From Candidatus Saccharimonadia bacterium (GTDB lineage Bacteria; Patescibacteriota; Saccharimonadia; UBA4664): 64,000 nt of DNA. The number at the start of each line of letters is the position of its first letter. Position 1 is the first letter of the stretch. The position numbers and the translations under genes were made by a program. The notes below the pieces were generated by a model that worked only from the letters and a program-made list of their open reading frames with translations, did no database searches and was not told the DNA's origin. Positions 3,856-63,804 of this stretch are shown in pieces. The stretch covers positions 1,804-65,803 of the forward strand of contig JBBRSS010000004.1 in assembly GCA_038245115.1 (NCBI GenBank), read 5' to 3'.

Positions 3856-3967
3856 AAAATTTTAACTTTCAGGCTCTTATAACTCCACAATTTTAGTCCA
3901 TGTCGTGATCTAAAGTAAAACAGGCGCAGTTGCGTGGCACTAGCTAGGTTTCGGCGAGCAAATGACC

Positions 3968-3983
3968 TGTGATCTTAATCACA
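3968..3983. promoter_or_regulatory. Perfect CRP-family palindrome TGTGATCTTAATCACA in the divergent MMPL / cytochrome-b-like intergenic region
   Basis: TGTGA-N6-TCACA read directly from the sequence. It sits 86 bp upstream of the 4069 start and about 113 bp upstream of the 3855 start. Confidence 0.45.
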
Positions 3984-4068
3984 CTGTACGGCACAGCATA
4001 AGTGGTATATTTAACAAAATAATAATGACGCCGCTCGCGAGTTTCGCTCGTCGGTCGCCAAGGAACAA

Positions 4069-5478
4069 ATGGCTAAACGCAATTCTTCTTCCAGACCAAT
4101 TCGCACTGCCCTGCAAAATCTCATGATTCGCGATGTCCCGTCCTATGCCAACAAGTTCGCCTATTCGCTGGGTTTTCTTTCGGCCGTCTCATTCTTTTTG
4201 CTAGTTGCCACCGGCATTATTATGGCTATGGCCGGGCCTCATTGGTGGATAACCAGCTCCTTAGGGCAGTATCTGCGCAGCTTCCATCTCTGGGCTACCC
4301 AAGCCTTCGTCGTATTTATCCTGCTGCATTTAACGATTGTATTTCTAACGTCAGGCTACAAAGGCTCCCGCAAATTCACCTGGGTGCTGGGCGTCTTGAT
4401 GTTCTTCTTTGCTCTAGCCGAAGCCGAATTCGGTTACGTATTGCGTGGAGATTTCTCCTCTCAATACCGCAGCCTGCAGGGTTCCGACCTCTACAACGGC
4501 AGCGGTATAGGCTGGGTTCTCAACAACCTCAACACCGGTCAAGTCATGGGCATTCACATTGCAGTATTGCCGCTGACCTTAATTGTCCTCATTCTGGCCC
4601 ATTATTTTCTTGTGCGGGTCCTTGGTATTGGCAAGCCGTCACCGGCCGCCGACGCTTACCCGATGGTCAAAGCGAATCACGGCTTACTATTTTGGCGCGG
4701 CGGTACCGTAATTGCGCTGGTGGCGGCCTTGGCCTTTGCTTACCCTTCGCCCTATTTGGCGCCGCTGACTATCAGCAAGATTGCCAGTGACGATCCGGCG
4801 CTAATTTCGCAAACCCTCGTTAAGGAATTTGACGGCACATCCGACACCGCCACCTATAAAAACAATATTGCCCCGTACACGTTTAATTCGCGGTCCGTCT
4901 ATATCGAGGCCCCCTATACGCAGCTTAAGGCTACCCAGACCACTCCTAGCCAATTGAAGCTGTTCCTGGCACAGCCAGCCGAGGTTCAAAAGACGCAGCT
5001 TGATGCCGCCACGGCGTTTTATGCTGCCGACCCAGTGAGCAAAACGCTGCCCAAGGGCAACCAGGCCATCGCCGTAGTCGACAGCCTTACGACCATGGCA
5101 AAAAGCGGCCTCTACGAAGCCGCTCTGCGCGACAGCAACGGATCCGGCTACCAAACTACTTATGTGGTCAGGTTCTTGTCTGATACTGGTGTACCCGAAG
5201 AAACCGCCACTAGTATGAATATGACCACAGATCAATACGGCATGGTTCGCGAAGAGGCCAACAGCCAAGCACCCGGCGCTTGGTGGCTGGCACCAATCGG
5301 GTTGCTCAACCACACCGTCCTGGCCAAAGATGAGGACAACGGCGACCGCGACGGTGCTATCATTATTGGCACCTCCTTGCTTCTGTTGCTGGCCTTTCCC
5401 TTTATTCCGTTCCTAAACCGGCTTCCTGAGGTGTTGCGTATACGCAAGCTGTTTTGGCGCAAACCAAGCTCCAAGTAG
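4069..5478 (+). CDS. Di-heme cytochrome b N-terminal-domain protein (b6 type) fused to a roughly 200-aa extracytoplasmic domain between two extra TM helices
   Basis: Helix B carries H-x13-H (FHLWATQAFVVFILLH) and helix D carries H-x14-H (GIHIAVLPLTLIVLILAH), which is the b6-type spacing. RKFTWVLGVLMFFFALAEAEFGYVLRGDFSSQ matches the cytochrome b TW..G....AF.GYVLPWGQMS block. The quinol-site C-terminal domain is absent, replaced by a TM, a soluble domain and a final TM. Confidence 0.65.
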   Translation: MAKRNSSSRPIRTALQNLMIRDVPSYANKFAYSLGFLSAVSFFLLVATGIIMAMAGPHWWITSSLGQYLRSFHLWATQAFVVFILLHLTIVFLTSGYKGSRKFTWVLGVLMFFFALAEAEFGYVLRGDFSSQYRSLQGSDLYNGSGIGWVLNNLNTGQVMGIHIAVLPLTLIVLILAHYFLVRVLGIGKPSPAADAYPMVKANHGLLFWRGGTVIALVAALAFAYPSPYLAPLTISKIASDDPALISQTLVKEFDGTSDTATYKNNIAPYTFNSRSVYIEAPYTQLKATQTTPSQLKLFLAQPAEVQKTQLDAATAFYAADPVSKTLPKGNQAIAVVDSLTTMAKSGLYEAALRDSNGSGYQTTYVVRFLSDTGVPEETATSMNMTTDQYGMVREEANSQAPGAWWLAPIGLLNHTVLAKDEDNGDRDGAIIIGTSLLLLLAFPFIPFLNRLPEVLRIRKLFWRKPSSK

Positions 5479-5540
5479 TTATCGCAAGGTTCTCCTGTCC
5501 TTCTCATCTAATTCTAAGCAAATCGTAGTACATTTGGCTC

Positions 5541-5993
5541 ATGAAAAAACTCTTACTAGGTGCATTTGTTGTCGGAAGCTATATCATATATAGCTTCCAT
5601 CAGCGCGGGGAGGGATCAGCGGCCGTGGTGCCGCCATCTATCCAATCCACGCCGCCCGCCTCAGGGGCTACTGCCACTCCAGGTGCTGCCTCTACGCCTG
5701 CTGTTGCCTATAAGGACGGGCAATATACCGGCCAGTCTGCCGATGCCTACTACGGCTACATTCAGGTAAAAGTGACGATCTCCGGGGGTAAACTGTCCAA
5801 CGTTGAATTCTTGCAATCTCCCAGTGATCGATCCACCTCGGTGCGAATTAACTCTCAAGCCATGCCCTACCTCAAACAGGAGGCCATACAGGCTCAGAGC
5901 GCCGGCGTAGACGGTGTTTCTGGCGCCACCGATACCAGCCAAGCTTTCATCCAGTCCCTAACATCTGCGCTCAAAGCCGCACAAGCAGCTTGA
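5541..5993 (+). CDS. Membrane-anchored FMN-binding-domain protein (FMN_bind), predicted ApbE flavinylation substrate
   Basis: N-terminal TM (LLLGAFVVGSYIIYSF), a Pro/Ala/Thr linker, the YKDGQYTG FMN_bind start, and the flavinylation motif VDGVSGAT (Thr codon at 5928-5930). Confidence 0.75.
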   Translation: MKKLLLGAFVVGSYIIYSFHQRGEGSAAVVPPSIQSTPPASGATATPGAASTPAVAYKDGQYTGQSADAYYGYIQVKVTISGGKLSNVEFLQSPSDRSTSVRINSQAMPYLKQEAIQAQSAGVDGVSGATDTSQAFIQSLTSALKAAQAA

Positions 5994-6733
5994 AACAGAC
6001 CCGACAAATAATGGGTATGCCGGTGACGCTTATTGTCGAGGATGAAACTGCCTCCGCAGACATATTTGATCAAGCCTATGCTTATTTTACGAAGGTCGAT
6101 CAAGCCTACAGCCCGTACATCGCCACCAGCGAAGTCTCGCGAATTAACTCTGGCCTGCCCGAATCTGATTGGAGCCCCCAAATTACCGAGGTCGCGCAAC
6201 TATGCCGCGACACCTCCACTGCCACCGATGGCTATTTCGACGCCTGGCATCACGGCAAATTCGATCCCTCCGGTATCGTCAAGGGCTGGGCTATCAATAA
6301 TGCCGCCAAGCTATTGAGCAGCCTTGGTTGTCAAAATTATTACGTTGAAGCGGGTGGCGACATTCAGGTGAGCGGTTTTAACGCTTCGCACGAACCTTGG
6401 CATATTGGCATTCGCAACCCGTTTGATCGCCGGCAGAACGTCAAGGTGGTCTCGCTTAGTACCCAGGGAATTGCCACCTCGGGGCTTTATATCCGCGGCG
6501 CACATATATACAACCCACACGATGATAAAGCGCAACTTTCCGAAGTCGCTTCTCTGAGCGTCATCGGGCCAAATATTTACGAAGCCGACCGCTTCGCCAC
6601 CGCTGCTTTTGCAATGGGCCCTGCCGGCATCAATTTTATCGAGTCGCTGCCGGGCCTAGAGGCTTATATGATAAATAAGTCAGGCCAGGCGACGCTCACA
6701 AGCGGCTTCGAGCAGTATGTGAGGGCTAATTGA
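5990..6733 (+). CDS. apbE: ApbE-family FAD:protein FMN transferase (short form with no signal peptide)
   Basis: MGMPVTLIV, FDPSGIVKGWA, AGGDI and NPHD blocks of ApbE. TTG start in a TTGA overlap with the upstream stop. 247 aa beginning directly at the conserved MG.P block. Paralog of 13712..14449. Confidence 0.7.
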   Translation: MKQTRQIMGMPVTLIVEDETASADIFDQAYAYFTKVDQAYSPYIATSEVSRINSGLPESDWSPQITEVAQLCRDTSTATDGYFDAWHHGKFDPSGIVKGWAINNAAKLLSSLGCQNYYVEAGGDIQVSGFNASHEPWHIGIRNPFDRRQNVKVVSLSTQGIATSGLYIRGAHIYNPHDDKAQLSEVASLSVIGPNIYEADRFATAAFAMGPAGINFIESLPGLEAYMINKSGQATLTSGFEQYVRAN

Positions 6734-8247
6734 TGAAATATCTCGATAAATTCCTCGACCGCATCACCATGTACCATTTGTTGGTCTATTACTTGTACGC
6801 GCTTCTGGGTGCTGCCATGCTATTGAGTGCAGTTGGCGCCTTGGCATATAATCCGCTGGCAATCGCTATTTCTGCCGGTTATTTAGTAGCGGTTTGCCTG
6901 GTAGCCAACCGTGTCTTTGCGGCCATCTTTAAAGCCCCAAGCAATCCTGAGTCATCCCTCATTACTGCCCTCATTTTGGCTTTAATTATTACGCCGCTAG
7001 CCTCTATCCAGAGCCTGGTATTCTTAACTGCCGCCGCCGGGCTCGCTATTGCCTCAAAGTATTTACTGACCATCCGGGGACGGCACATTTTTAACCCCGC
7101 CGCAGTGGCCGTAGCACTAACGGCGGTGGGCGCCGGCGAATCTGCCAGCTGGTGGGTGGGCAGCGCGGCTCTAGCTCCGGTGGTGATCATTGGCGGCATC
7201 ATGTTAGTACGCAAGGTCAGGCGGGTCCAGATGGTGGCGCTGTTCATTATCACTGCCGTGGTCGCTACGTCTATATTAACCATCATCAGCCAAGGCAATG
7301 TCGTCGGCGAAATCCAAAAAACCTTCCTGCAGTCATCATTGCTCTTTCTTGCATTTGTGATGCTCACTGAGCCGTTGACCTCGCCCGCACAAAGTCGTCA
7401 TCAACGCTGGTATGCCATATTGGCCGGGGTACTCTTTCCGCCCCAGATTCATTTGCTGTCGCTCTATTCCACGCCCGAACTTGTGCTGCTAATTAGTAAC
7501 ATCTATGCCTATATCGTTAATCCCAAGGTCAAGCTGTTGCCTTTGCTCCAAAAAAAGATTTCTTGGGGTCCGAATACTGCCGATTTTGTCTTTGCCCTCG
7601 ACCAGCCGATAGATTATTTGCCGGGACAATATATGGAATTTACTTTGCCGCACTCCAAACCGGACTCTCGCGGCAGCCGGCGTTACTTTACACTCGCGTC
7701 GTCACCAACTGAAAATAATCTTCGCTTGGGCGTTAAATTCTATCCCCGAGGCAGTACATTCAAACAGGCACTTCGCAACATGGGCAAGACTACGCCCTTC
7801 GCTGCGGCCCAGTTGAGTGGCGACTTTGTTCTCCCCAACGACTCTACCCGCAAACTCGCCTTCGTCGCCGGCGGTATCGGCGTGACACCATTTAGGAGTA
7901 TGATCAAATACTTGTCCGACACCGACGACCCCAGATCTGTGACCTTATTGTATTCCGAGCGGACCGCGGCCGATTTGGCGTACGTTGATGTATTCACGGC
8001 CGCCCAAGCCAAACCTGGGACCAAAATTGTCTATACCCTCACCGATGCCAACACAGCGGTACCGACAGGCATGCAGGCTGGGTTCATTACTGCCGAAATT
8101 ATTCAAGCCGAAATTCCTGACTACAAAGACCGTCTTTTCTACATTTCCGGGTCTCATTCTATGGTAAGTGCTATGCAGTCAGCCCTAGGCGAGCTCGGAG
8201 TATCTAAGCACAATATTAAGATTGATTTCTTCCCCGGCTACGTTTAA
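6733..8247 (+). CDS. Fusion of a polytopic membrane domain (NqrB/RnfD-like, HIFNPA motif) with an FNR-type FAD/NAD(P)-binding oxidoreductase domain
   Basis: N-terminal ~270 aa with about 8 TM and GRHIFNPAAV. C-terminal RRYFTLASSP (FAD RxYS/T motif) and AFVAGGIGVTPF (NAD GGxGxxP). TGATG overlap with apbE. Confidence 0.6.
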   Translation: MKYLDKFLDRITMYHLLVYYLYALLGAAMLLSAVGALAYNPLAIAISAGYLVAVCLVANRVFAAIFKAPSNPESSLITALILALIITPLASIQSLVFLTAAAGLAIASKYLLTIRGRHIFNPAAVAVALTAVGAGESASWWVGSAALAPVVIIGGIMLVRKVRRVQMVALFIITAVVATSILTIISQGNVVGEIQKTFLQSSLLFLAFVMLTEPLTSPAQSRHQRWYAILAGVLFPPQIHLLSLYSTPELVLLISNIYAYIVNPKVKLLPLLQKKISWGPNTADFVFALDQPIDYLPGQYMEFTLPHSKPDSRGSRRYFTLASSPTENNLRLGVKFYPRGSTFKQALRNMGKTTPFAAAQLSGDFVLPNDSTRKLAFVAGGIGVTPFRSMIKYLSDTDDPRSVTLLYSERTAADLAYVDVFTAAQAKPGTKIVYTLTDANTAVPTGMQAGFITAEIIQAEIPDYKDRLFYISGSHSMVSAMQSALGELGVSKHNIKIDFFPGYV

Positions 8248-8266
8248 TTGGTGGCCCACTGTAACC

Positions 8267-8665
8267 TTACTTATCGCGCCGGTGATCAATTCGCTCACCA
8301 AAAACTTGTGCATCCTGGCCAGCTGGGTAGCCACCCTGCATAGTCTTTTCTTCGGCGCCCGCAACATCTAGCGCAACTCCGCCCGAAGACCTCAGGACAA
8401 GGTTAAACACAAAGCCGTTCACGTAACCAATCAACCATCCGATGGCAAAGTAGACAACGGGTAACACAAACAGTGACAAGGCACCGATCGTCATACCCAT
8501 AAGCAACCCCTGTATCAAACTATCGGTGGCATTCGTGTACGCAATTGTCCCGCTAAACAAATACATTATTGACACTACCAGACCAATAATCGCACCAAAC
8601 ACACCCTCAAACATCGCTACTGTTGATGGCTTAATTCCTGTAACCATTACCTCTCGTTCATTCAT
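8267..8665 (-). CDS. Hypothetical small membrane protein (3-4 TM)
   Basis: ORF of 132 aa with hydrophobic helices, convergent with the upstream redox module. Confidence 0.4.
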   Translation of the reverse strand: MNEREVMVTGIKPSTVAMFEGVFGAIIGLVVSIMYLFSGTIAYTNATDSLIQGLLMGMTIGALSLFVLPVVYFAIGWLIGYVNGFVFNLVLRSSGGVALDVAGAEEKTMQGGYPAGQDAQVFGERIDHRRDK

Positions 8666-19135: not shown

Positions 19136-19563
19136 ACTTCTTCGATCAGCTGCTTCATGCTGCCAAGCACCATAGTCCAATTCGAGGAGGCCTGTTCGCG
19201 GGCCTCCTCGTTGTCGTTGCCATCTTGTAGAATTACCACCTCAGTCCCGCCGTCGTGCTCATTTAACAGATAGCTCACGGTAACGTAATTCTCCGGCACA
19301 TCTGCCTTGCCGCTCATGCCCGACCAATAAGTACTCACTAGCTTCATGCCCGGCTCAGCCTCCAGTACCGTACCCTTATCTTCGTAGGCTTGGCCTTTCC
19401 ATTCACCCTTATACGTAATGGGGCTTCCCACCTGCCAATCCGAGGTGGCCTCCGTTCCAAACAGATAAACCTTGATCTGCTCCGGGTCAGTCAGCGCCGC
19501 CCACACCCTATCGGTATCCGCGTTAATGATGATTTTTGATTCAGCCACCAATCCTTTTGCCAT
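19132..19563 (-). CDS. SRPBCC-superfamily protein (AHSA1/Aha1-like)
   Basis: IINADTDRVWAALTDPEQIKVY start typical of the AHSA1/SRPBCC family. 143 aa. Confidence 0.6.
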   Translation of the reverse strand: MAKGLVAESKIIINADTDRVWAALTDPEQIKVYLFGTEATSDWQVGSPITYKGEWKGQAYEDKGTVLEAEPGMKLVSTYWSGMSGKADVPENYVTVSYLLNEHDGGTEVVILQDGNDNEEAREQASSNWTMVLGSMKQLIEEV

Positions 19564-19604
19564 AACGATTCCTCCGCTGCATATATTAATCTCGTAGAAG
19601 TATT

Positions 19605-21209
19605 TTAGCGCAGTACGTCGTCGCGTTTATCGCGCAAAAATGAGTTCCACTGCTCAATAATTCTGAGGATTGTTTTGAACGGTGTTTCAATAATAATGTC
19701 CAAGATCGACGTGAAGATATTGATTCGGCTGTAGCGCTCGGCCAGCCATTGGCCCGCCCGAATGAAGGGTGTTAGCAGAAAATCGCTTAAATTCGCGATG
19801 AGGCCCGGGTCTTCCTCGATAACAGCGTACTCACGGACCGAGTAGGCGATACGGTAGGCAAAGAAGCTGACCGTCGAGAGAAATACGAAGAAAATAATTC
19901 CGCTTACTAGGTTGAATCCGACTATCTGCAACATCCACGATATTGCCGCCAAAGTTGCCAATGAGGTTAGCAAATAAAACAGGCTAAATGTGCTGCGCAT
20001 TTTTGACGTCCGCCCGCGACTGGATAGGGTGTAGCGTATTGGCTGCTGATCCGAAACATACACGATCTGCTTCAAATCGCTCAGGATTTTGGTGGTGTTG
20101 CGTTGGCCGGGGATCTTAATTGTGAGTCCGACCATTGCCATATATAGCGGCGGGAAGAGCAGATTGATTCCGAGCGGCAGGTAGTTGACCGCGCCGTAGG
20201 CGAATAGTTCATACGGAATCTCGATAATCATCCCCAAGACTACCTTGGTAATAAACAGGAATATTACCGCCTGCACCACGCTGCGTTTGAGGCGGCTCGA
20301 TACCACTTGATACTGCGTTTCGGCCACACTTCGGGCTTTTTCGATCAGTACGGATGGGGTAGTGGCGAGCTGCTCGAGGCCTTCGTGGCTGGTTTTGATA
20401 ATTTCGCGCAAAATCAGATACGGCGCAATGTGGCGACGCACTAACCGGAACATACGATGTGGGGTGGCACCCCCAGTTTGGTCATCCAGCTGAGCATTAA
20501 TTTCGACAAATTGCTTGCCGGCAGCCTCTAGTTGGGCATTATCCTCGAGCCAGCGGGGGAAGGCTCGCGAAAATACCCCGTAACGGATAGTTGCAATATC
20601 AGATTTCAATAGTGCCTTGTGTACGGCGGCGTACAGTGCCATTTGGTCTTCTCGGGCCACATCGGCGTGATCTATGAACGCCGCATACGTAAACTCGACT
20701 ATCGCGGCCTCGGTCGGGTTCGGCTGCAATGCCCGCTCGAGCTCCACCGAGAGCAAAGCGATAATATTGCTGGCAATTTCGTCGTGACTATCGTGACTTC
20801 GCGATAGCGCCGTCTGTTGTAGCGAGCCGTACCGCCGAACAATGTAATCGATATACTCAATTTCATCTTCGCGGATAGTGTCGTTATCCAAATAGCGGGT
20901 TTTGGTAAGTTCGCTTACCAATTCAAACCCGATGTCTTCCGACCCGTTGGGTTTTAATTCACGCAGTAAAAATCGTTCAATTGCGCCGCGCAAGAATAAG
21001 TGTTGTTCGCGATACTCAACGGCATTGCGAATCTGCTCATACAAAAAATATGCCCCGGCGGTAATTTCCGGAACGTGGACCTTTGTGCCTTTCCAGACCG
21101 GAGCCTGTTGCGCACGCAATAGCTGCACGAGTCCTTGCATTAGCGGTGATAACTTCGGCGCGTCCGCGGACGGGGCGGCAGTTATCTTATTCTCGAGCGG
21201 ATTATGCAT
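19605..21209 (-). CDS. Hypothetical protein, large N-terminal soluble domain plus C-terminal 4-TM region
   Basis: ORF of 534 aa with no recognised motifs; hydrophobic helices at residues ~330-450. Confidence 0.45.
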
Positions 21210-51299: not shown

Positions 51300-51467
51300 G
51301 CTTCGGTTGAGCAAAATACCCCGCTCCGAGAAGGGTATACCTTCTCCCGAAAATAGTCTCATTAAAAGACTAATCTAAATGAGACTAATCCGAGCAAAAA
51401 GGTGAGTTCCGCGCAAAATGGCCAGTAACCGGTTGCCCCTAAACCCATAATAGACAATACTTAAGCT

Positions 51468-51914
51468 ATGAAGATTTACCTTGCCGCTGATCACGCTGGC
51501 TATGAATTAAAAAACATCTTGAGCGAACATCTGGTTCACGCCGGGTACGATGTTGCCGATCTCGGTGCCAAAACCCTCGATCCCGTTGACGATTTTGCGC
51601 AATACGCCTACGCTACCACCGCGAAAATTCTCGGCGACGAGGGCGATTCCCGCGGCATCCTAGTCTGCGGGTCGGGGCAGGGGATGGCTATGGCCGCCAA
51701 CCGAGTGGGGGGCATTCGTGCCGCTGTGATCTGGAGCGTCGAGGGCGCCAAAGAGACCCGCAACGACAATGACTCCAACGTTCTCACCCTCCCTGCTCGC
51801 ATGATCGATACCGAAACCGCCATTGCCATCGCCGAGGCCTGGCTTACGGAGCCCTTCTCCGGCGAGGAGCGCTATCAGCGCCGTATTGACCAGATCGAGC
51901 AGCTGTATGGCTAG
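51468..51914 (+). CDS. rpiB: Ribose-5-phosphate isomerase B
   Basis: MKIYLAADHAGYELK and ILVCGSGQGMAMAANR (RpiB/LacAB fold). Confidence 0.85.
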   Translation: MKIYLAADHAGYELKNILSEHLVHAGYDVADLGAKTLDPVDDFAQYAYATTAKILGDEGDSRGILVCGSGQGMAMAANRVGGIRAAVIWSVEGAKETRNDNDSNVLTLPARMIDTETAIAIAEAWLTEPFSGEERYQRRIDQIEQLYG

Positions 51915-52545
51915 TGTCGCCCCCACAATCAACGCCACCAGCCCCGAAGATTATGCTCGGCGCATCGACAACGTCAAGTCGTTTGCTACTCGCCTCCATA
52001 TCGACGTGGGCGATGGGGTGTTTACTGACGTTAGAACCGTCGGCCTCAGTCAGGTTTACGACATCGACGGTGTACCGTTCGACCTTCACCTCATGTTAAG
52101 CCATCCCGAAAGCCAGATCGAAAACATCGTCAGTCTGCAGCCACAGCTCGTCATCGTTCACTTTGAGGTCCAATTCGACCGAGAAGCCTTTTTCAAGCAA
52201 TTACGGTCGATGGATATTAAGGTTGGCCTCGCAATCAACACCGAAACTACCATCGAGCAGGTTCGCGATATATTGCCAACAATAAATCATCTCGTCGTCT
52301 TCACAGGCCGTCTCGGCCATAATGGCGGCGAATTCCGTGGTGACTGCCTCGAGAAAATCGCTCAAGCCCGCGCCATCAACCCCGATCTGGAGATTGCCGT
52401 CGACGGGGGGCTCAATCAGGAAACCTGCCGCCTGGCCGTTGAGGCCGGCGCCAATCTGCTCGATGTTGGCAGCTTCATTCATGATGCCCCCGACCCCGAG
52501 ATTGCCTACATCGCCGTCCAGGCCATCGCCGAGGGCACAAGCTGA
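51907..52545 (+). CDS. rpe: Ribulose-phosphate 3-epimerase-family (TIM barrel) protein
   Basis: LHIDVGDGVF resembles H.D.MDG.F; the remaining TIM-barrel blocks are present. 8-nt overlap with rpiB. Confidence 0.6.
   Translation: MASVAPTINATSPEDYARRIDNVKSFATRLHIDVGDGVFTDVRTVGLSQVYDIDGVPFDLHLMLSHPESQIENIVSLQPQLVIVHFEVQFDREAFFKQLRSMDIKVGLAINTETTIEQVRDILPTINHLVVFTGRLGHNGGEFRGDCLEKIAQARAINPDLEIAVDGGLNQETCRLAVEAGANLLDVGSFIHDAPDPEIAYIAVQAIAEGTS
52510..52545 (+). repeat. Direct repeat copy 1: the last 36 nt of rpe, ATCGCCGTCCAGGCCATCGCCGAGGGCACAAGCTGA
   Basis: 30 of 36 nt identical, with a 17-nt exact core GCCATCGCCGAGGGCAC, to 53519..53554. Confidence 0.7.
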
Positions 52546-52586
52546 GCATGCCTGCTATCATTACTTCATAACCTCAAGAGGAACGT

Positions 52587-53519
52587 ATGGCTGAACAAGC
52601 AGAACAAAACGGCGATAAATCGAATTATGCCATCGGCTCATCAGGCGCCAATTTGGCTAGCGAGCACCTGGAAATTGTCGCCGTCAATCCCGAGCAAGCT
52701 GAAGCCCAACGTCCACCGCGCCTTCAGCTCAGCTTCGACCGCGAAAAAATAGCCACCTCCGAGCTGCCAGAAGAAATGAAGGATTGGTTGATGCGCTTGC
52801 CCGAAAACCTGAATTTCACCGACCCGGTCACGCTTATCGTTGGAGACAATGGCACAGGCAAGACTTCTATTGCCCGGGGAATCGTGGCCGCCCTCAGCAG
52901 GGCCCGCATGGCCGCCAACCCCGAAGGCCGTTTCAATGATCTATACCTTGAGAATGGCGAACCCGCCAATGCCATTGCGGACGCCATAAACGTGTCAGTC
53001 GAAGATGCTGCCAAGGGTAATATCATCACTACTTTTATCGAAGGATCGGAGGTCATGTTTAAATCCCGTGAATGGGCGCGCGAGCAGGCCAGGTCACAAG
53101 GAAGGCCGAATAGTACGGAAGTAGCTACATGGATGAAGGGCCATACTACCGAAGAGGAAATCGTCGCAAGAACCCCCATCCACGAGTTGTCGTCGCGCCA
53201 GTTGTTTGAGCAATCCATACAGGGCATTAAGCGCCAATCAATCGATAGTCACCGTCAGCGCGTTGGTGGAGATGTGGTAGTTATTTTCGATGAGCCAGAA
53301 CAGGGGTTGAGCCCACAACGCCAACTTGAACTCCCGGGTGTAATCGCTGGCTTTTTGGACGAACATGACACGATGCTCGTTCCTACAAACAACTTGGCTC
53401 TATATTTGTCGGATATGCCACGCATTGATGTTGATCACCCGGATCGTGGTGTGTACAAGCCCTCAGATTATGACGAAGGCGGGAAAATCGAGCTATTCCA
53501 CTCTGAAGGGCAGGAATGA
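52587..53519 (+). CDS. Solo P-loop ATPase (Walker A GDNGTGKTS, Walker B VVVIFDEPEQGLSP; ABC/AAA_21-like), carried on an insertion
   Basis: Motifs read directly. No permease or partner gene is present. Flanked by the duplicated rpe 3' end. Confidence 0.6.
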   Translation: MAEQAEQNGDKSNYAIGSSGANLASEHLEIVAVNPEQAEAQRPPRLQLSFDREKIATSELPEEMKDWLMRLPENLNFTDPVTLIVGDNGTGKTSIARGIVAALSRARMAANPEGRFNDLYLENGEPANAIADAINVSVEDAAKGNIITTFIEGSEVMFKSREWAREQARSQGRPNSTEVATWMKGHTTEEEIVARTPIHELSSRQLFEQSIQGIKRQSIDSHRQRVGGDVVVIFDEPEQGLSPQRQLELPGVIAGFLDEHDTMLVPTNNLALYLSDMPRIDVDHPDRGVYKPSDYDEGGKIELFHSEGQE

Positions 53520-53554
53520 TCGCCGTGGCTGCCATCGCCGAGGGCACGAGCTAA
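53519..53554 (+). repeat. Direct repeat copy 2 (ATCGCCGTGGCTGCCATCGCCGAGGGCACGAGCTAA), an orphan remnant encoding ..IAVAAIAEGTS*
   Basis: Begins immediately after the ATPase stop codon and is out of frame with it. Confidence 0.7.
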
Positions 53555-53591
53555 TCTCGCCAAAATCCATGAAAAAAGTTATGCTTAGCTT

Positions 53592-54464
53592 ATGACACAT
53601 AAACAGCTCGAGCTTCAGGCCGAGCAAATCCGCGAAGATATCGTCAATATGCTAGTGGAGGCCGGCAGTGGCCACAGCGCTGGGCCATTGGGTCTCGCCG
53701 ATATTTTTACTGCGCTGTATTTCGAAATCATGGATCACCGCCCGAAAGACCCGAACTGGGCCGGCCGCGACCGCTTATTCTTAAGTAACGGCCACTGCGT
53801 GCCCGTGCGCTACGCCACCATGGCCCGCGCCGGGTACTTTCCCGTCTCGGAGCTCAAAACTCTGCGCAAATTCGGCAGCCGCCTCCAAGGCCACCCCGAG
53901 CGCCTGCGCCTACCCGGCCTCGAATCCACCTCCGGCCCACTCGGCAGTGGCATCAGCCAGGCCGCCGGCCACGCTCTTGCCCTCCGCATGGACAACTCGC
54001 GCAGCCATGTTTACGTAGTCACTGGCGACGGTGAGCTCGATGAGGGCAACATTTGGGAGGCGGCCATGTTTGCCGCCAAGTACCAGCTTTCCAATCTCAC
54101 CGCCATCATCGACCGAAATTACATCCAAATCGACGGTTCCACCGAAAACGTTATGCCGCTGGGCGATGTAGGTGCAAAATTCGCCGCCTTTGGCTGGCAC
54201 GTCATCGAGATCGACGGTCACAACTTCCAGGCCATCATGGACGCGTGCCATCTCGCCAAGGCCATTGCCGATCAGCCTGTGGCCATCATTGCCCACACCA
54301 TCCCCGGCCGAGGCGTCGACTACATGGAGTACGACTATCACTGGCATGGCAACCCGCCCGGCACACTCGAAACCCCCGGCGCCCCGCCCTTGAAAGATCA
54401 GGCCCGCATCGCTCTGCATGAGCTACGAACGCTGGGCGGCCAAATTAGGGGCGAACATGAGTAA
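53592..54464 (+). CDS. tkt: Transketolase, N-terminal (TPP-binding) subunit
   Basis: GHSAGPLGLADI, VVTGDGELDEGNIWEA and NGHCVPVRYA. Confidence 0.9.
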   Translation: MTHKQLELQAEQIREDIVNMLVEAGSGHSAGPLGLADIFTALYFEIMDHRPKDPNWAGRDRLFLSNGHCVPVRYATMARAGYFPVSELKTLRKFGSRLQGHPERLRLPGLESTSGPLGSGISQAAGHALALRMDNSRSHVYVVTGDGELDEGNIWEAAMFAAKYQLSNLTAIIDRNYIQIDGSTENVMPLGDVGAKFAAFGWHVIEIDGHNFQAIMDACHLAKAIADQPVAIIAHTIPGRGVDYMEYDYHWHGNPPGTLETPGAPPLKDQARIALHELRTLGGQIRGEHE

Positions 54465-54777
54465 GGCGCGACATTTGAAGCTCATTTTTATTAGTGTATT
54501 TCTAACAGTGGTAGTTCTAAGCGTAGAATTAACTGTTCCGATATCCAAGATTAATAGGCCGTGCGCCGGGATTGGCGAATGCGGGGTAGTAGAACGACAT
54601 TATGGCTGGCCTCAAATGATACGAGCCGACCTCGTTTCTCCGCCACTAGTTATACCCAGCGATCTATCCGTGTCATTGCTGTTGGTTGACGCACTTATCA
54701 TCTTGGTGCCGGTTTCGCTAGTAGTGTACGGTATTCCACTCATCAACCGACGTCGTAACGCGAGGGCCACTCTATGA
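54457..54777 (+). CDS. Small membrane protein (106 aa, 2-3 TM) inserted between the two transketolase halves
   Basis: Overlaps both the tkt-N stop (ATGAGTAA) and the tkt-C start (ATGA). The segment is conspicuously AT-rich (54480-54560). Confidence 0.4.
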   Translation: MSKARHLKLIFISVFLTVVVLSVELTVPISKINRPCAGIGECGVVERHYGWPQMIRADLVSPPLVIPSDLSVSLLLVDALIILVPVSLVVYGIPLINRRRNARATL

Positions 54778-62125: not shown

Positions 62126-63804
62126 GCAATGCAAAAACGGACGCCTCGCCAGCAAGTCAGCCCACGTCTACCGACTGGGCGGGACTCGGAGGTACTTTTA
62201 TTCGGTTCTGGCAGCGGTTCGCAAGGCGTATGTGGAGTGACCCAGTCATTATTGTTGGGTTGCTCCTTGTCGCCGGGCTGGTTCATGGTCTGCAAATGAC
62301 CGTGACTCCGTCGCTGCTAACCACCGACGACGAAGGAACCTACGTCGCACAGGCCTGGGCTATCCTCTACAAAGGAGCCCTCGCTCACTACACGTACTGG
62401 ATGGACCATCCGCCCGGGGGATGGATTCAGATGGCCGGTTGGGCCTGGTTAACCCATGCCTTCGACCGGTACGACTCGGCCATCGCCGTTGGCCGCGAGT
62501 TCATGCTAGTGGCAACCCTGGCCAGCGTGGCCTTGCTCTATCTTCTGGCTAAGCGCCTCGGGATGAACAAGTTCTTCTCAATCGGAGCAGTGGCATTGTT
62601 TGCGCTGAGCCCGTTGGCAGTTTATACCCACCGGCTAACGTTCCTGGATAACATCGCCATCCCATGGGTGCTGGCCGCGTTTCTGTTGGCTGCCTCACCG
62701 CGCAACCGGCTGGCAGCTGTCATTGGCTCGGCCGTGTGTTTCGGGGTGGCGGTTCTGACCAAAGAAACCATCCTGGTGGTTTTGCCGGCCCTCCTGTGGC
62801 AGCTCCGTCAGGGCACGCACCCTCGGACCAGACGGATGAGTTACTTTCTCTGGTCCGTATTTGCCGGGTGTGTGGGCTTTATCTACATACTGATGGCAAT
62901 CGTCAAAAACGAATTATTGCCGGGGCCCGGCCACGTCGACTTGCTGTACGCCATCCGGTGGCAGCTGTTCGATCGGGCCTCAAGCGGCAGTTTCTTCGAT
63001 CCCACAAGTGCCGCGAGTGTGATTGTTCACTCATGGGTTCGGCTCGACCCGTGGTTGATCGGCTTGGCAGTGGCTCTTGCGTTGCCGGCGATGTTGCGCC
63101 GGCAACTTCGACCTGTGGCGCTGGCGTTTGTTATCCAGATTGCAGTCATGCTGCGCCCGGGTGGCTACTTGCCTCAGCCTTATGTGATTGCCCTGATCCC
63201 GTTCGCCGCCCTCATTGTGGCGGGCGCGGTCGGGGCATTGTGGAACTCCGGGCTGCTGAACCGCTTCCATCTGTTGCGCAACCAGATACCCCGCACGGGG
63301 TTCTCGTACGCGCAGGTTCTGGTACAGGCGCCCGCTTTGGCCATTGTGGCCGTGTTTGGTCTGGTAATCGCGGTTCCCCAGTGGTCGCCGCGTCTCCACG
63401 ACCTCATGACCGATGACCGTAACGTGTCGGTTCGACAGACCATGGAGTGGGTCGAGACCCATATCCCGACCAAGAAAGGGGATGCCAGCCCTGTCCACAT
63501 CCTGGTGAGCGACGCTATGTGGGTTGATCTGAAACGGCTAGGCTATGCGCCTGACTGGTACTTCAAGGTCGACCTGGATCCCGCCGTGAAGGCCAATTAC
63601 CCGCAAGGTTGGCAAGATGTCGATTACGTGATCTTCACCAACGAGATGAACGAGATCGCCAAGTCCGACTCCAAGGCCGACATGACCACAACGCTCGCTT
63701 CACGCAAGCACGGAACCCTAGTGGCTAAGTTTGGTTCGCTCAGCGAGACAATTTGGATCTACCAGGTACACAAACCCCTCCGGACTAGTTCCGGTACCGG
63801 CTAA
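62122..63804 (+). CDS. GT-C-fold glycosyltransferase (PMT/ArnT, GT39/83-like)
   Basis: First-loop DE motif (TTDDEGTYVAQAW), about 11 TM, ATGA overlap with the upstream GT2 gene. Confidence 0.6.
   Translation: MSNAKTDASPASQPTSTDWAGLGGTFIRFWQRFARRMWSDPVIIVGLLLVAGLVHGLQMTVTPSLLTTDDEGTYVAQAWAILYKGALAHYTYWMDHPPGGWIQMAGWAWLTHAFDRYDSAIAVGREFMLVATLASVALLYLLAKRLGMNKFFSIGAVALFALSPLAVYTHRLTFLDNIAIPWVLAAFLLAASPRNRLAAVIGSAVCFGVAVLTKETILVVLPALLWQLRQGTHPRTRRMSYFLWSVFAGCVGFIYILMAIVKNELLPGPGHVDLLYAIRWQLFDRASSGSFFDPTSAASVIVHSWVRLDPWLIGLAVALALPAMLRRQLRPVALAFVIQIAVMLRPGGYLPQPYVIALIPFAALIVAGAVGALWNSGLLNRFHLLRNQIPRTGFSYAQVLVQAPALAIVAVFGLVIAVPQWSPRLHDLMTDDRNVSVRQTMEWVETHIPTKKGDASPVHILVSDAMWVDLKRLGYAPDWYFKVDLDPAVKANYPQGWQDVDYVIFTNEMNEIAKSDSKADMTTTLASRKHGTLVAKFGSLSETIWIYQVHKPLRTSSGTG

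Follow-up and report, generated by a model that had tools for sequence, protein, structure and literature searches.

A probable integrase-less mini-island carrying an ATPase gene between att-like repeats at the 3' end of rpe in a Saccharimonadia bacterium

Mobile DNA in the bacteria of the Candidate Phyla Radiation (CPR), or Patescibacteria, is little charted, and their tiny genomes are usually said to hold few classical mobile elements. Cis-mobilizable elements (CIMEs) derive by decay from integrative and conjugative elements (ICEs) or integrative mobilizable elements (IMEs), and are mobilised in cis once they have undergone accretion with a functional element. Integrative mobile elements exploiting Xer (IMEX) carry no integrase and integrate at dif via the host Xer tyrosine recombinase acting in trans. 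The ICESt1/ICESt3 family reportedly targets fda with repeats of ~27 bp, a finding said to go back to Pavlovic et al. in 2004. A CIME retains attL and attR and has no integration or transfer genes (PMC5704250), and tandem accretion at tRNA genes is described for the tycheposon islands of Prochlorococcus (10.1101/2020.12.28.424599). Here we analyse a 64-kb stretch of DNA from Candidatus Saccharimonadia bacterium (contig JBBRSS010000004.1 of assembly GCA_038245115.1), hereafter the window, which is only part of the genome. At the 3' end of rpe, the gene for ribulose-phosphate 3-epimerase, the window holds a 1,009-bp unit with one ATPase gene. We consider it likely that this unit is an att-flanked, CIME-like mini-island without an integrase, and that it delivered the ATPase gene into the end of rpe by a crossover in a short core sequence.

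The closest analogues are the CIMEs and the ICESt1/ICESt3 elements, the latter known from the 3' end of fda in Streptococcus thermophilus. There, as at rpe, the element lies in the 3' end of a housekeeping gene of sugar metabolism whose coding end is restored. AttL/attR-type direct repeats are found in both cases, and neither a CIME nor the rpe unit carries an integrase or transfer genes of its own; the rpe unit keeps both repeats and lacks integration and transfer genes, the combination by which a CIME is recognised. What is new relative to the known att-flanked elements is the extreme smallness of the unit (1 kb and one gene, where a CIME, the remnant of an ICE or IME that has decayed, runs to several kb), the lack of a known parent (no related complete element with an integrase was found among the loci examined), the CPR host, and the finding of a single cargo family at three different targets, a pattern not expected if three large elements had decayed independently.

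The last 36 nt of rpe recur immediately after the ATPase gene (Table 1), as the original prediction had it. The two copies are identical at 30 of 36 positions, with mismatches at repeat positions 9-12, 30 and 35. Copy 1, ATCGCCGTCCAGGCCATCGCCGAGGGCACAAGCTGA, stands in the rpe frame and encodes IAVQAIAEGTS*, and copy 2, ATCGCCGTGGCTGCCATCGCCGAGGGCACGAGCTAA, would encode IAVAAIAEGTS*; both thus translate to ..AIAEGTS*, each in its own frame. Even when 2 mismatches are tolerated, the exact 17-nt core, GCCATCGCCGAGGGCAC, matches the window at just these two places (0.02 expected), and no further copy of either the core or the 36-mer was found in the 64 kb. The similarity is far above chance: the next-best 36-mer match in the gap between rpe and tkt is 20/36, and the maximum reached by shuffled sequences is 22. 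A repeat search extends the pair to 43 nt at 79% identity. The description of the second copy as an out-of-frame orphan also holds, since it begins on the final base of the ATPase stop codon, it is out of frame with the ATPase open reading frame (ORF), and its own frame is open only from 53474. Within that frame an ATG at 53516, overlapping the ATPase stop codon (ATGA), begins a 12-codon mini-ORF, MIAVAAIAEGTS* (53516-53554), which is probably fortuitous.

The six differences between the copies respect the codon structure of rpe. Two are synonymous (GTC>GTG and ACA>ACG), CAG>GCT replaces Gln by Ala, and TGA>TAA exchanges one stop codon for another. Changes of this kind are seen between functional alleles, and Ala occurs naturally at the position in question in the rpe of a relative (L017, ..AVAAIAEGAS*). 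The 36-nt segment of the element therefore resembles the end of another rpe, and not a decayed copy of the resident one.

The comparison with related genomes confirms that the region is an insertion. A scan of species-representative genomes with TktN, the N-terminal half of the split transketolase encoded downstream of rpe, yielded 80 related loci, nearly all of them labelled Saccharimonadia, Saccharibacteria or Patescibacteria. In the nine closest relatives with a compact junction (L010, L011, L012, L013, L017 and L023-L026), which span TktN identities from 73% (L026) to 95% (L010), rpe runs straight into tkt, the rpe stop being followed by 37-86 nt and the tkt start. The ATPase gene is found at the rpe|tkt junction in 0 of the 80 loci, and no relative carries it at this site without the repeat. 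The second copy of the repeat is absent from the intergenic regions of the relatives, and is therefore not a conserved regulatory element. Because the relatives have empty sites, the insertion is best placed in the lineage of the window; repeated loss of the unit would be unparsimonious, and the repeat would even then have to have arisen in some earlier event.

The relatives also reveal how the two copies are composed. With blastn, the window aligns to L010 in two collinear blocks (51464-52543 with 3883-4961, and 53531-54457 with 4940-5866), which overlap by 22 nt on L010; a single L010 segment therefore matches both copies of the window. The empty site of L010 reads ..ATTGCCGTCCAG-core-GAGCTAA-TCTCGCCAAAATC.., and the empty site of the relatives corresponds to the left part of copy 1, the core, and the right part of copy 2. 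In copy 1 the left arm is of the host type (GTCCAG, as in L010), and the right arm, A AGC TGA, differs from that of L010 (ACA/TGA versus ACG/TAA) and is followed by unrelated sequence. In copy 2 the left arm is the one that differs (GTGGCT, preceded by the 3' end of the ATPase gene), and the right arm and the spacer behind it are of the host type. Relative to L010, copy 2 has 5 differences in its 12 left bases and none in the next 24, the core and right arm being identical; by our own arithmetic, the hypergeometric probability that all 5 fall within the left 12 bases is 792/376,992 = 0.002. Such a chimera is the attL/attR pattern of one reciprocal crossover, which we infer to have occurred inside the 17-nt core, in agreement with the earlier proposal that an element recombined into the 3' end of the gene and supplied a replacement terminus. 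One occupied site, nine empty ones and a chimera boundary that places the crossover in the core together resolve the insertion to the single nucleotide. The density of mismatches to L010 does not increase toward the junction on either side, and the ATPase gene was therefore not imported together with long homologous flanks.

The unit comprises the element-specific sequence from 52539 to 53530 and a single 17-nt core. Before insertion, or as a circle, it would contain the 933-nt ATPase ORF, the 36-nt mimic of the rpe end, which overlaps the stop codon of that ORF by one base, and a 41-nt spacer; the reconstructed attP junction would read ..ATCGCCGTGGCT-core-AAGCTGAGCATGCC... The spacer has no counterpart in the empty sites of the relatives and may provide the ATPase gene with a promoter and a ribosome-binding site, to judge from the motifs listed in Table 1; the -10-like TGCTATCAT was not flagged in a generic promoter scan. 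In the course of events that we propose, the unit would have entered by one reciprocal (Campbell-type) crossover between its rpe mimic and the chromosomal rpe terminus, within the core where both are identical. The original end of rpe and the tkt promoter would have been displaced 1 kb downstream, with the rpe fragment persisting as a non-coding orphan. A crossover at this place would leave the end of the Rpe protein (..AIAEGTS*) unchanged, but the last two sense codons and the stop codon would now be element DNA; the final 7 nt of rpe (A AGC TGA) would be supplied by the element. The gene is indeed of full length, with 94.8% amino acid identity to the L010 Rpe over the whole protein; it ends as in L010, and all differences between its element-type last 7 nt and the host type are synonymous. 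Neither rpe nor tkt was damaged by the insertion, and the putative tkt promoter was left in place. A single gene can, in other words, enter the end of an essential-pathway gene harmlessly and without bringing a recombinase.

The composition of the ATPase gene is in keeping with this history. Its GC content at third codon positions (GC3) is 0.556, versus 0.61-0.73 in the flanking metabolic genes, and its nearest homologue is only 53% identical and stands in an unrelated gene context; the low GC3 and the distant homologue fit a foreign origin. The empty sites and the chimeric repeats show that the 1,009-bp unit was acquired horizontally by this lineage.

The family to which the ATPase belongs is small: a search of 5.8 billion clustered proteins gave 17 matches, and one of 1.84 billion proteins gave 58 representatives at E<1e-30. 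In the ~15 distinct genomic contexts examined, the neighbours differ each time, and no partner gene recurs. At two loci, L001 and L090, homologues that are 39-53% identical to the window ATPase lie beside genes for tRNA-Gln and tRNA-Asn, respectively, and these loci have a layout in common with rpe: the target gene's end, 36-49 nt, the ATPase gene in the same orientation, 12-59 nt, and a duplicated target end.

At L001 (GCA_964582465.1 contig CAZOQX010000008.1; an identical stretch is present in L002), an array extends from 5884 to 8460, beginning with tRNA-Gln (5884-5958) and the ATPase gene (6001-6849) directly 3' of it. An exact 13-nt repeat of the tRNA end is found at 5949-5961 and 6895-6907, and the downstream copy retains the T-loop-like GTTCGAA. 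The array consists of the ATPase cassette, a frameshifted S51 peptidase, a 67-aa ORF and a 3-dmu-9_3-mt-family gene, in this order, and each of the first three units ends in a 29-mer similar to the tRNA 3' end (6876-6904, 7642-7670 and 7909-7937). The 59-nt arms at the cassette ends are 83% and 63% identical to the first arm despite unrelated cargo, and about half of the arm is unlike tRNA. At L090 (SRR26786801; identical stretches in L091 and L092) the array runs from 5010 to 6578, where the contig ends inside it. The tRNA-Asn gene (5010-5085) is again directly followed by the ATPase gene, and an exact 19-nt repeat is found at 5079-5097 and 6061-6079 (0.00 expected by chance), with a third copy at 6548-6566. 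Here a 19-23-nt repeat that contains the tRNA end, GGAGCCAAGCATAAGCATT, follows the tRNA, the ATPase gene, and then the next ORF of 132-148 aa; the 49-nt arms are 80% identical. The upstream neighbour, in divergent orientation, encodes a 344-aa protein without a Pfam match.

The units of the two arrays measure 0.27-1 kb and have 1-2 genes each, and in both arrays it is the ATPase cassette that adjoins the tRNA. Under an accretion model this position implies that the ATPase cassette arrived last, and its repeats, which are the least diverged, agree with this. The layout at three loci looks like a recurrent way in which the ATPase gene travels and not like a one-off accident, and the rpe unit and the two tRNA loci, taken together, suggest that these organisms can gain genes by a reusable route.

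A homologue also lies near a tRNA gene in L123, where P0010 (576-1412) is located ~340 nt downstream of tRNA-Gln (165-237) with a 103-aa ORF between them. No partial tRNA repeat was found at this locus; an unusually GC-rich segment of ~160 nt (1440-1600) follows the homologue.

The crossover was most probably catalysed by a site-specific recombinase acting in trans, which would make the unit comparable to a CIME or a cassette. The enzyme would be of the tyrosine type, and its gene would lie in another part of the genome or on a helper or parent element no longer present. We favour such an enzyme because the L001 cassettes, with their different cargo, share an arm that is half unlike tRNA and resembles a protein-binding site. 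The unit itself contains no recombinase, the ATPase gene being its sole supported ORF, which agrees with the earlier description of a single-gene cargo without an integrase, and none was found near the L001 and L090 arrays, with none within 6 kb of the former. Should a recombinase acting in trans come to light, genetic tools for Saccharibacteria would have a ready-made landing pad in the 36-nt site.

The main alternative for the catalyst, and a serious rival, is RecA-dependent integration through short homology, again of the Campbell type, in which a small circle, or a fragment circularised after uptake, carrying the ATPase gene and the rpe end of a previous host would have recombined over 17-36 nt of homology. 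We regard this as a real possibility, if a somewhat unlikely one. It would explain why none of the three repeat-flanked units contains a recombinase or has one nearby, and why the att-like repeats are wholly different at the three loci and always equal to the local target. It also best accounts for the left arm of copy 2, which reads like a functional rpe allele, as is easiest to understand if crossover points vary between transfers, a feature of homologous recombination. However, the minimal efficient processing segment of RecA usually exceeds 17 nt of identity, and the 17-nt core falls under it. The arm shared at 83% identity over 59 nt by L001 cassettes with unrelated cargo, of which about half does not resemble tRNA, is a further difficulty for RecA, as it suggests a site recognised by a protein.

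A wider interpretation, which we offer tentatively and think unlikely when taken as a whole, is that Saccharimonadia, or the CPR more generally, possess a new dedicated cassette system. Its promoter-bearing units of 1-2 genes and 0.3-1 kb would each end in a short arm that mimics the 3' end of a gene, either for a tRNA or for a protein, and a recombinase encoded elsewhere would insert them one after the other. Such a system would function like an integron with target-mimic sites instead of attC; rpe would then represent a fresh single-cassette event and the ATPase gene an active passenger.

Integron cassettes do share several traits with the units described here: a size of ~1 kb, one ORF with one recombination site, no recombinase within the cassette, an arrangement in arrays and, in L001, a conserved ~59-nt 3' arm on cassettes with unrelated cargo. 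However, the repeats are not attC-like imperfect palindromes; as single-stranded DNA their folds have z-scores from -2.05 to +0.73 and no common hairpin. Neither intI nor attI is found beside any of the arrays, whose upstream neighbours are rpiB and rpe in the window, an AI-2E transporter gene and tRNA-Gln in L001, and the gene for the 344-aa protein and tRNA-Asn in L090; and the ATPase gene has its own apparent promoter. An insertion sequence or transposon does not fit either. No transposase was found, and the unit has no terminal inverted repeats, its best inverted pair being 13 nt at 85% identity and lying within the ORF. Repeat lengths vary between the loci from 13 to 36 nt, unlike a target-site duplication of fixed length. 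At rpe we find flanking direct repeats on the 3' end of the target, a matching empty site and a restored reading frame, as in integrative elements, and no integrase or recombinase belonging to the unit. Since it lacks the defining traits of an integron cassette and of a transposon, we class it as an att-flanked integrative unit without an integrase.

The arrays at L001 and L090 recall tRNA-associated islands and tycheposons in that the ATPase cassette adjoins the tRNA and each unit is set off from the next by a partial copy of the tRNA 3' end. Tycheposons, however, are many kb in length and carry a tyrosine recombinase and replication genes, whereas the units found here measure 0.27-1 kb, have 1-2 genes and lack a recombinase; moreover, the target in the window is a protein-coding gene and not a tRNA. 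IMEX elements resemble the unit in having no integrase, and a host-encoded tyrosine recombinase would act in trans in both. They differ in their target, which is dif and not the 3' end of rpe or a tRNA gene, and the repeat in the window has no dif-like architecture of 11-nt arms around a 6-8-nt centre.

Further searches for signatures of mobile elements returned little. No tRNA, tmRNA or Rfam RNA was found in or near the unit, and no relative of the ATPase on viral contigs. When viral contigs were searched for the repeat arms, two patterns had no match and the L090 18-mer had 10, none of them beside a tRNA, which we take as chance matches. A search for a shared motif upstream or downstream of the ATPase gene in 11 loci gave nothing convincing. 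In 836 kb of related loci, the only other exact direct repeats of at least 15 nt were paralogue motifs and isolated 19-mers without flanking similarity. The idea that the repeats resemble dif or the acceptor ends of tRNAs (GCCA) was abandoned, the likeness being too weak. The recurring TTATGCTTA was likewise rejected as a motif of the element, since it also precedes tkt and many other genes and is the local -10 box. The same box stands before the cassette genes in L001 and the inserted genes in L014 and L020.

By its sequence the cargo is a stand-alone ABC-type P-loop ATPase of the ABC/SMC/RecF class, with the features that define the superfamily. The assignment of the original prediction to an AAA_21/ABC-like type stands as to ABC and fails as to AAA_21: among Pfam models AAA_23 passes (40.8 bits, cut-off 27), whereas AAA_21 (20.6 versus 27) and AAA_15 (26 versus 32.1) do not. 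In an alignment of the 17-member family, GDNGTGKT, LSSRQ, IFDEPE and GLSP are invariant or nearly so, and the family has its own conserved C-terminal motif, PR[LI]D..PERG..PSDYGE. The AlphaFold2 (AF2) model (predicted local distance difference test, pLDDT, 82.5; predicted template-modelling score, pTM, 0.76) has an ABC fold. Because every catalytic ABC motif is present, the protein is probably an ATP-driven dimerising switch. It resembles soluble ABC-type ATPases, such as the nucleotide-binding domain of ABCE1, PtuA of Septu and retron systems, and the RecF/SMC heads of AAA_23, in the Walker A motif, the signature-like LSSRQ, the Walker B DEPE, the D-loop and the predicted ABC fold. It differs from them in being a single domain of ~270-310 aa with a conserved C-terminal motif of its own, and in having no coiled coil, Fe-S domain, second nucleotide-binding domain or nuclease partner.

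The original prediction further proposed that such an ATPase is frequently a component of anti-phage or abortive-infection systems, and did not fare well here. If the cargo were a stand-alone defence ATPase, the unit would be a minimal defence island, which we consider doubtful. The gene is rare, patchy and mobile, as is typical of defence genes. The best PADLOC match is mad8 (2.2e-10), followed by weaker ones to PtuA, AriA, GajA and LmuB, and in a Foldseek search of the PDB the PtuA ATPases of retrons Eco7/Ec78 come out on top (E ~1e-4). However, the mad8 match covers profile positions 26-209 of 314 and the others only 20-60 residues around the P-loop, that is, the P-loop or part of the nucleotide-binding domain, and LptB-like ABC transporter subunits score as well as PtuA in the structural comparison (template-modelling scores of 0.3-0.4 for either). 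The best relative of solved structure by sequence is different again: the family profile, searched against PDB sequences, finds the nucleotide-binding domain of an archaeal ABCE1 first (6.6e-10). A fold search of BFVD returned viral ABC-domain proteins. No NCBIfam model exceeds its cut-off (PtuA reaches 23.6 bits versus 500), and PHROGs gave nothing specific for the ATPase. No partner or effector gene (HNH, Toprim/OLD, helicase, methylase or nuclease) lies beside the ATPase gene in the window or in any of the ~15 contexts, and the larger members of the family have no additional Pfam domain. A role in defence is thus possible and not supported, and nothing ties the ATPase to recombination or to its own mobility. 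An AAA_21-like ATPase on a mobile unit should not be equated with a defence gene without a match at the level of the system.

Other histories of the insertion have less to recommend them. The 36 nt could have been duplicated by a transposition-like or end-joining insertion, the non-coding copy having mutated afterwards. The lineage has diverged widely from L010 at neutral sites (76 of 212 third positions in rpe), so that 6 differences in 36 nt are numerically possible, and a base present in both copies and not in L010 (ATC versus ATT) fits a duplication within this lineage. The distribution of the differences makes this improbable nevertheless: they are clustered, with four in succession and all five of copy 2 in the left 12 nt (p ~0.002), and they fall on codon boundaries. 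The lack of a transposase and of terminal inverted repeats also argues against it, and 36 nt is much longer than a target-site duplication made by a transposase, all of which, to our knowledge, are far shorter.

Alternatively, the ATPase gene may once have stood between rpe and tkt throughout the clade and the relatives may have lost it by recombination between the repeats. As a matter of logic only, deletion between direct repeats yields the same product as a site that was never occupied. The rpe|tkt junction is variable in the clade, too, and a recurrent insertion point: six relatives (L014, L015, L016, L018, L019 and L020) have 0.96-3.3 kb of unrelated cargo there, which includes small membrane ORFs and an ABC exporter pair. 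However, an ancestral ATPase gene is very improbable given the nine compact-junction relatives without it at 73-95% TktN identity, its absence from the site in all 80 loci, a nearest homologue that is 53% identical and located elsewhere, and a GC3 below that of the neighbouring genes; it also still requires an earlier event that made the repeat. The possibility that a chimeric join produced the duplicated terminus, conceivable in a metagenome assembly, since assemblers can be misled by repeats, can practically be dismissed, as the separately assembled Logan contig L009 (SRR19962014, 7.9 kb), in which rpe is likewise called with 212 aa, has the identical arrangement and spans both junctions, the copies differ at six positions and thus do not stem from repeat collapse, both rpe and tkt are undamaged, and the junctions are precise.

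Several observations weigh against our preferred reading of the unit as an att-flanked mini-island. No flanking repeat is found at most other loci with homologues of the ATPase gene (L003, L007, L093, L095, L096, L098, L099, L101, L120, L121, L122/123 and L126), and several of the loci without repeats have ordinary terminators. The taxonomy of L001 and L090 is not established. Among the relatives with other cargo between rpe and tkt (L014-16, L018-20, L032, L041, L063, L069, L071 and L087), none has a duplication of the rpe terminus above the level of shuffled sequences; right behind the rpe stop, L014 has an in-register 44-nt copy of the tkt promoter spacer, 66% identical, which does not exceed shuffles and is not significant. 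Divergence from L010 amounts to ~36% at third codon positions (76/212 in rpe), and therefore the number of differences between the two copies cannot by itself exclude a decayed target-site duplication. No recombinase domain was found in ten otherwise unassigned ORFs of the window, a result limited by the fact that the remaining ORFs were judged to be housekeeping or membrane genes by reading their translations and not by a full HMM scan. Finally, the mobility of the unit is a reading of its anatomy only.

Table 1. Coordinates of the features at the rpe-tkt junction of the window.
Feature	Position	Strand	Details
rpe (ribulose-phosphate 3-epimerase), intact, 212 aa	51907..52545	+	Pfam Ribul_P_3_epim 1.3e-31
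Repeat copy 1 (attL-like)	52510..52545	+	left arm of host type 52510-52521; 17-nt core 52522-52538; right arm of element type 52539-52545
Element-borne spacer 5' of the ATPase gene	52546..52586	+	extended -10-like TGCTATCAT 52553-52561; Shine-Dalgarno-like AAGAGGA 52576-52582
ATPase, sole cargo gene, 310 aa, stand-alone ABC/SMC-type	52587..53519	+	Pfam AAA_23 4.8e-10
ATPase, Walker A	52842..52865		GDNGTGKT
ATPase, signature-like motif	53187..53201		LSSRQ
ATPase, Walker B	53283..53300		IFDEPE
ATPase, D-loop	53304..53315		GLSP
ATPase, VPTNN motif	53379..53393		VPTNN
Repeat copy 2 (attR-like), non-coding orphan	53519..53554	+	left arm of element type 53519-53530 (ATCGCCGTGGCT); core 53531-53547; right arm 53548-53554 (GAGCTAA), the displaced original rpe end and stop codon
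Original rpe-tkt spacer with putative tkt promoter	53555..53591	+	TCGCCA, 17 nt, TATGCT, 6 nt, ATG; 33/37 nt identical to the L010 spacer
tktN (N-terminal half of split transketolase)	53592..54464	+	Pfam Transketolase_N 7.7e-58; 95% identical to L010

The genes around the insert form a co-directional cluster for sugar metabolism, in the order GAPDH, a small membrane ORF, rpiB, rpe, the ATPase gene, tktN, tktC, a class II aldolase and a sugar kinase; in the relatives with a compact junction tktN directly follows rpe. The spacer in front of tktN, which we infer from its sequence to act as a promoter, and its equivalents in L010-L026 have a conserved promoter-like arrangement, CTCGCCAA.(14-15 nt).TTATGCTT, that ends 5-6 nt before the tkt ATG. 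Because of this short distance, the spacer suggests that the tkt mRNA may be leaderless or nearly so.

A second small insertion relative to L010 and L011 is present at 54457-54777 of the window, where 309 nt separate the tktN stop from the tktC start and encode a 106-aa membrane protein with two predicted transmembrane segments. The ATG of this ORF overlaps the end of tktN and its stop codon the ATG of tktC, and it has no flanking duplication. Other inserts of 288-936 nt occupy the tktN/tktC junction in 12 relatives, and L012, L017, L018 and L020 have a common protein of ~100 aa there (VDFxLxD...HTRQ). Elsewhere in the window, a segment of 1.3 kb (19563-20902) is without an ORF of at least 70 aa in a greedy gene call and without an Rfam match, and near the window end (62664-63416) a GC-rich ORF of 250 aa, rich in Arg, Gly and Pro, looks non-coding or misframed.

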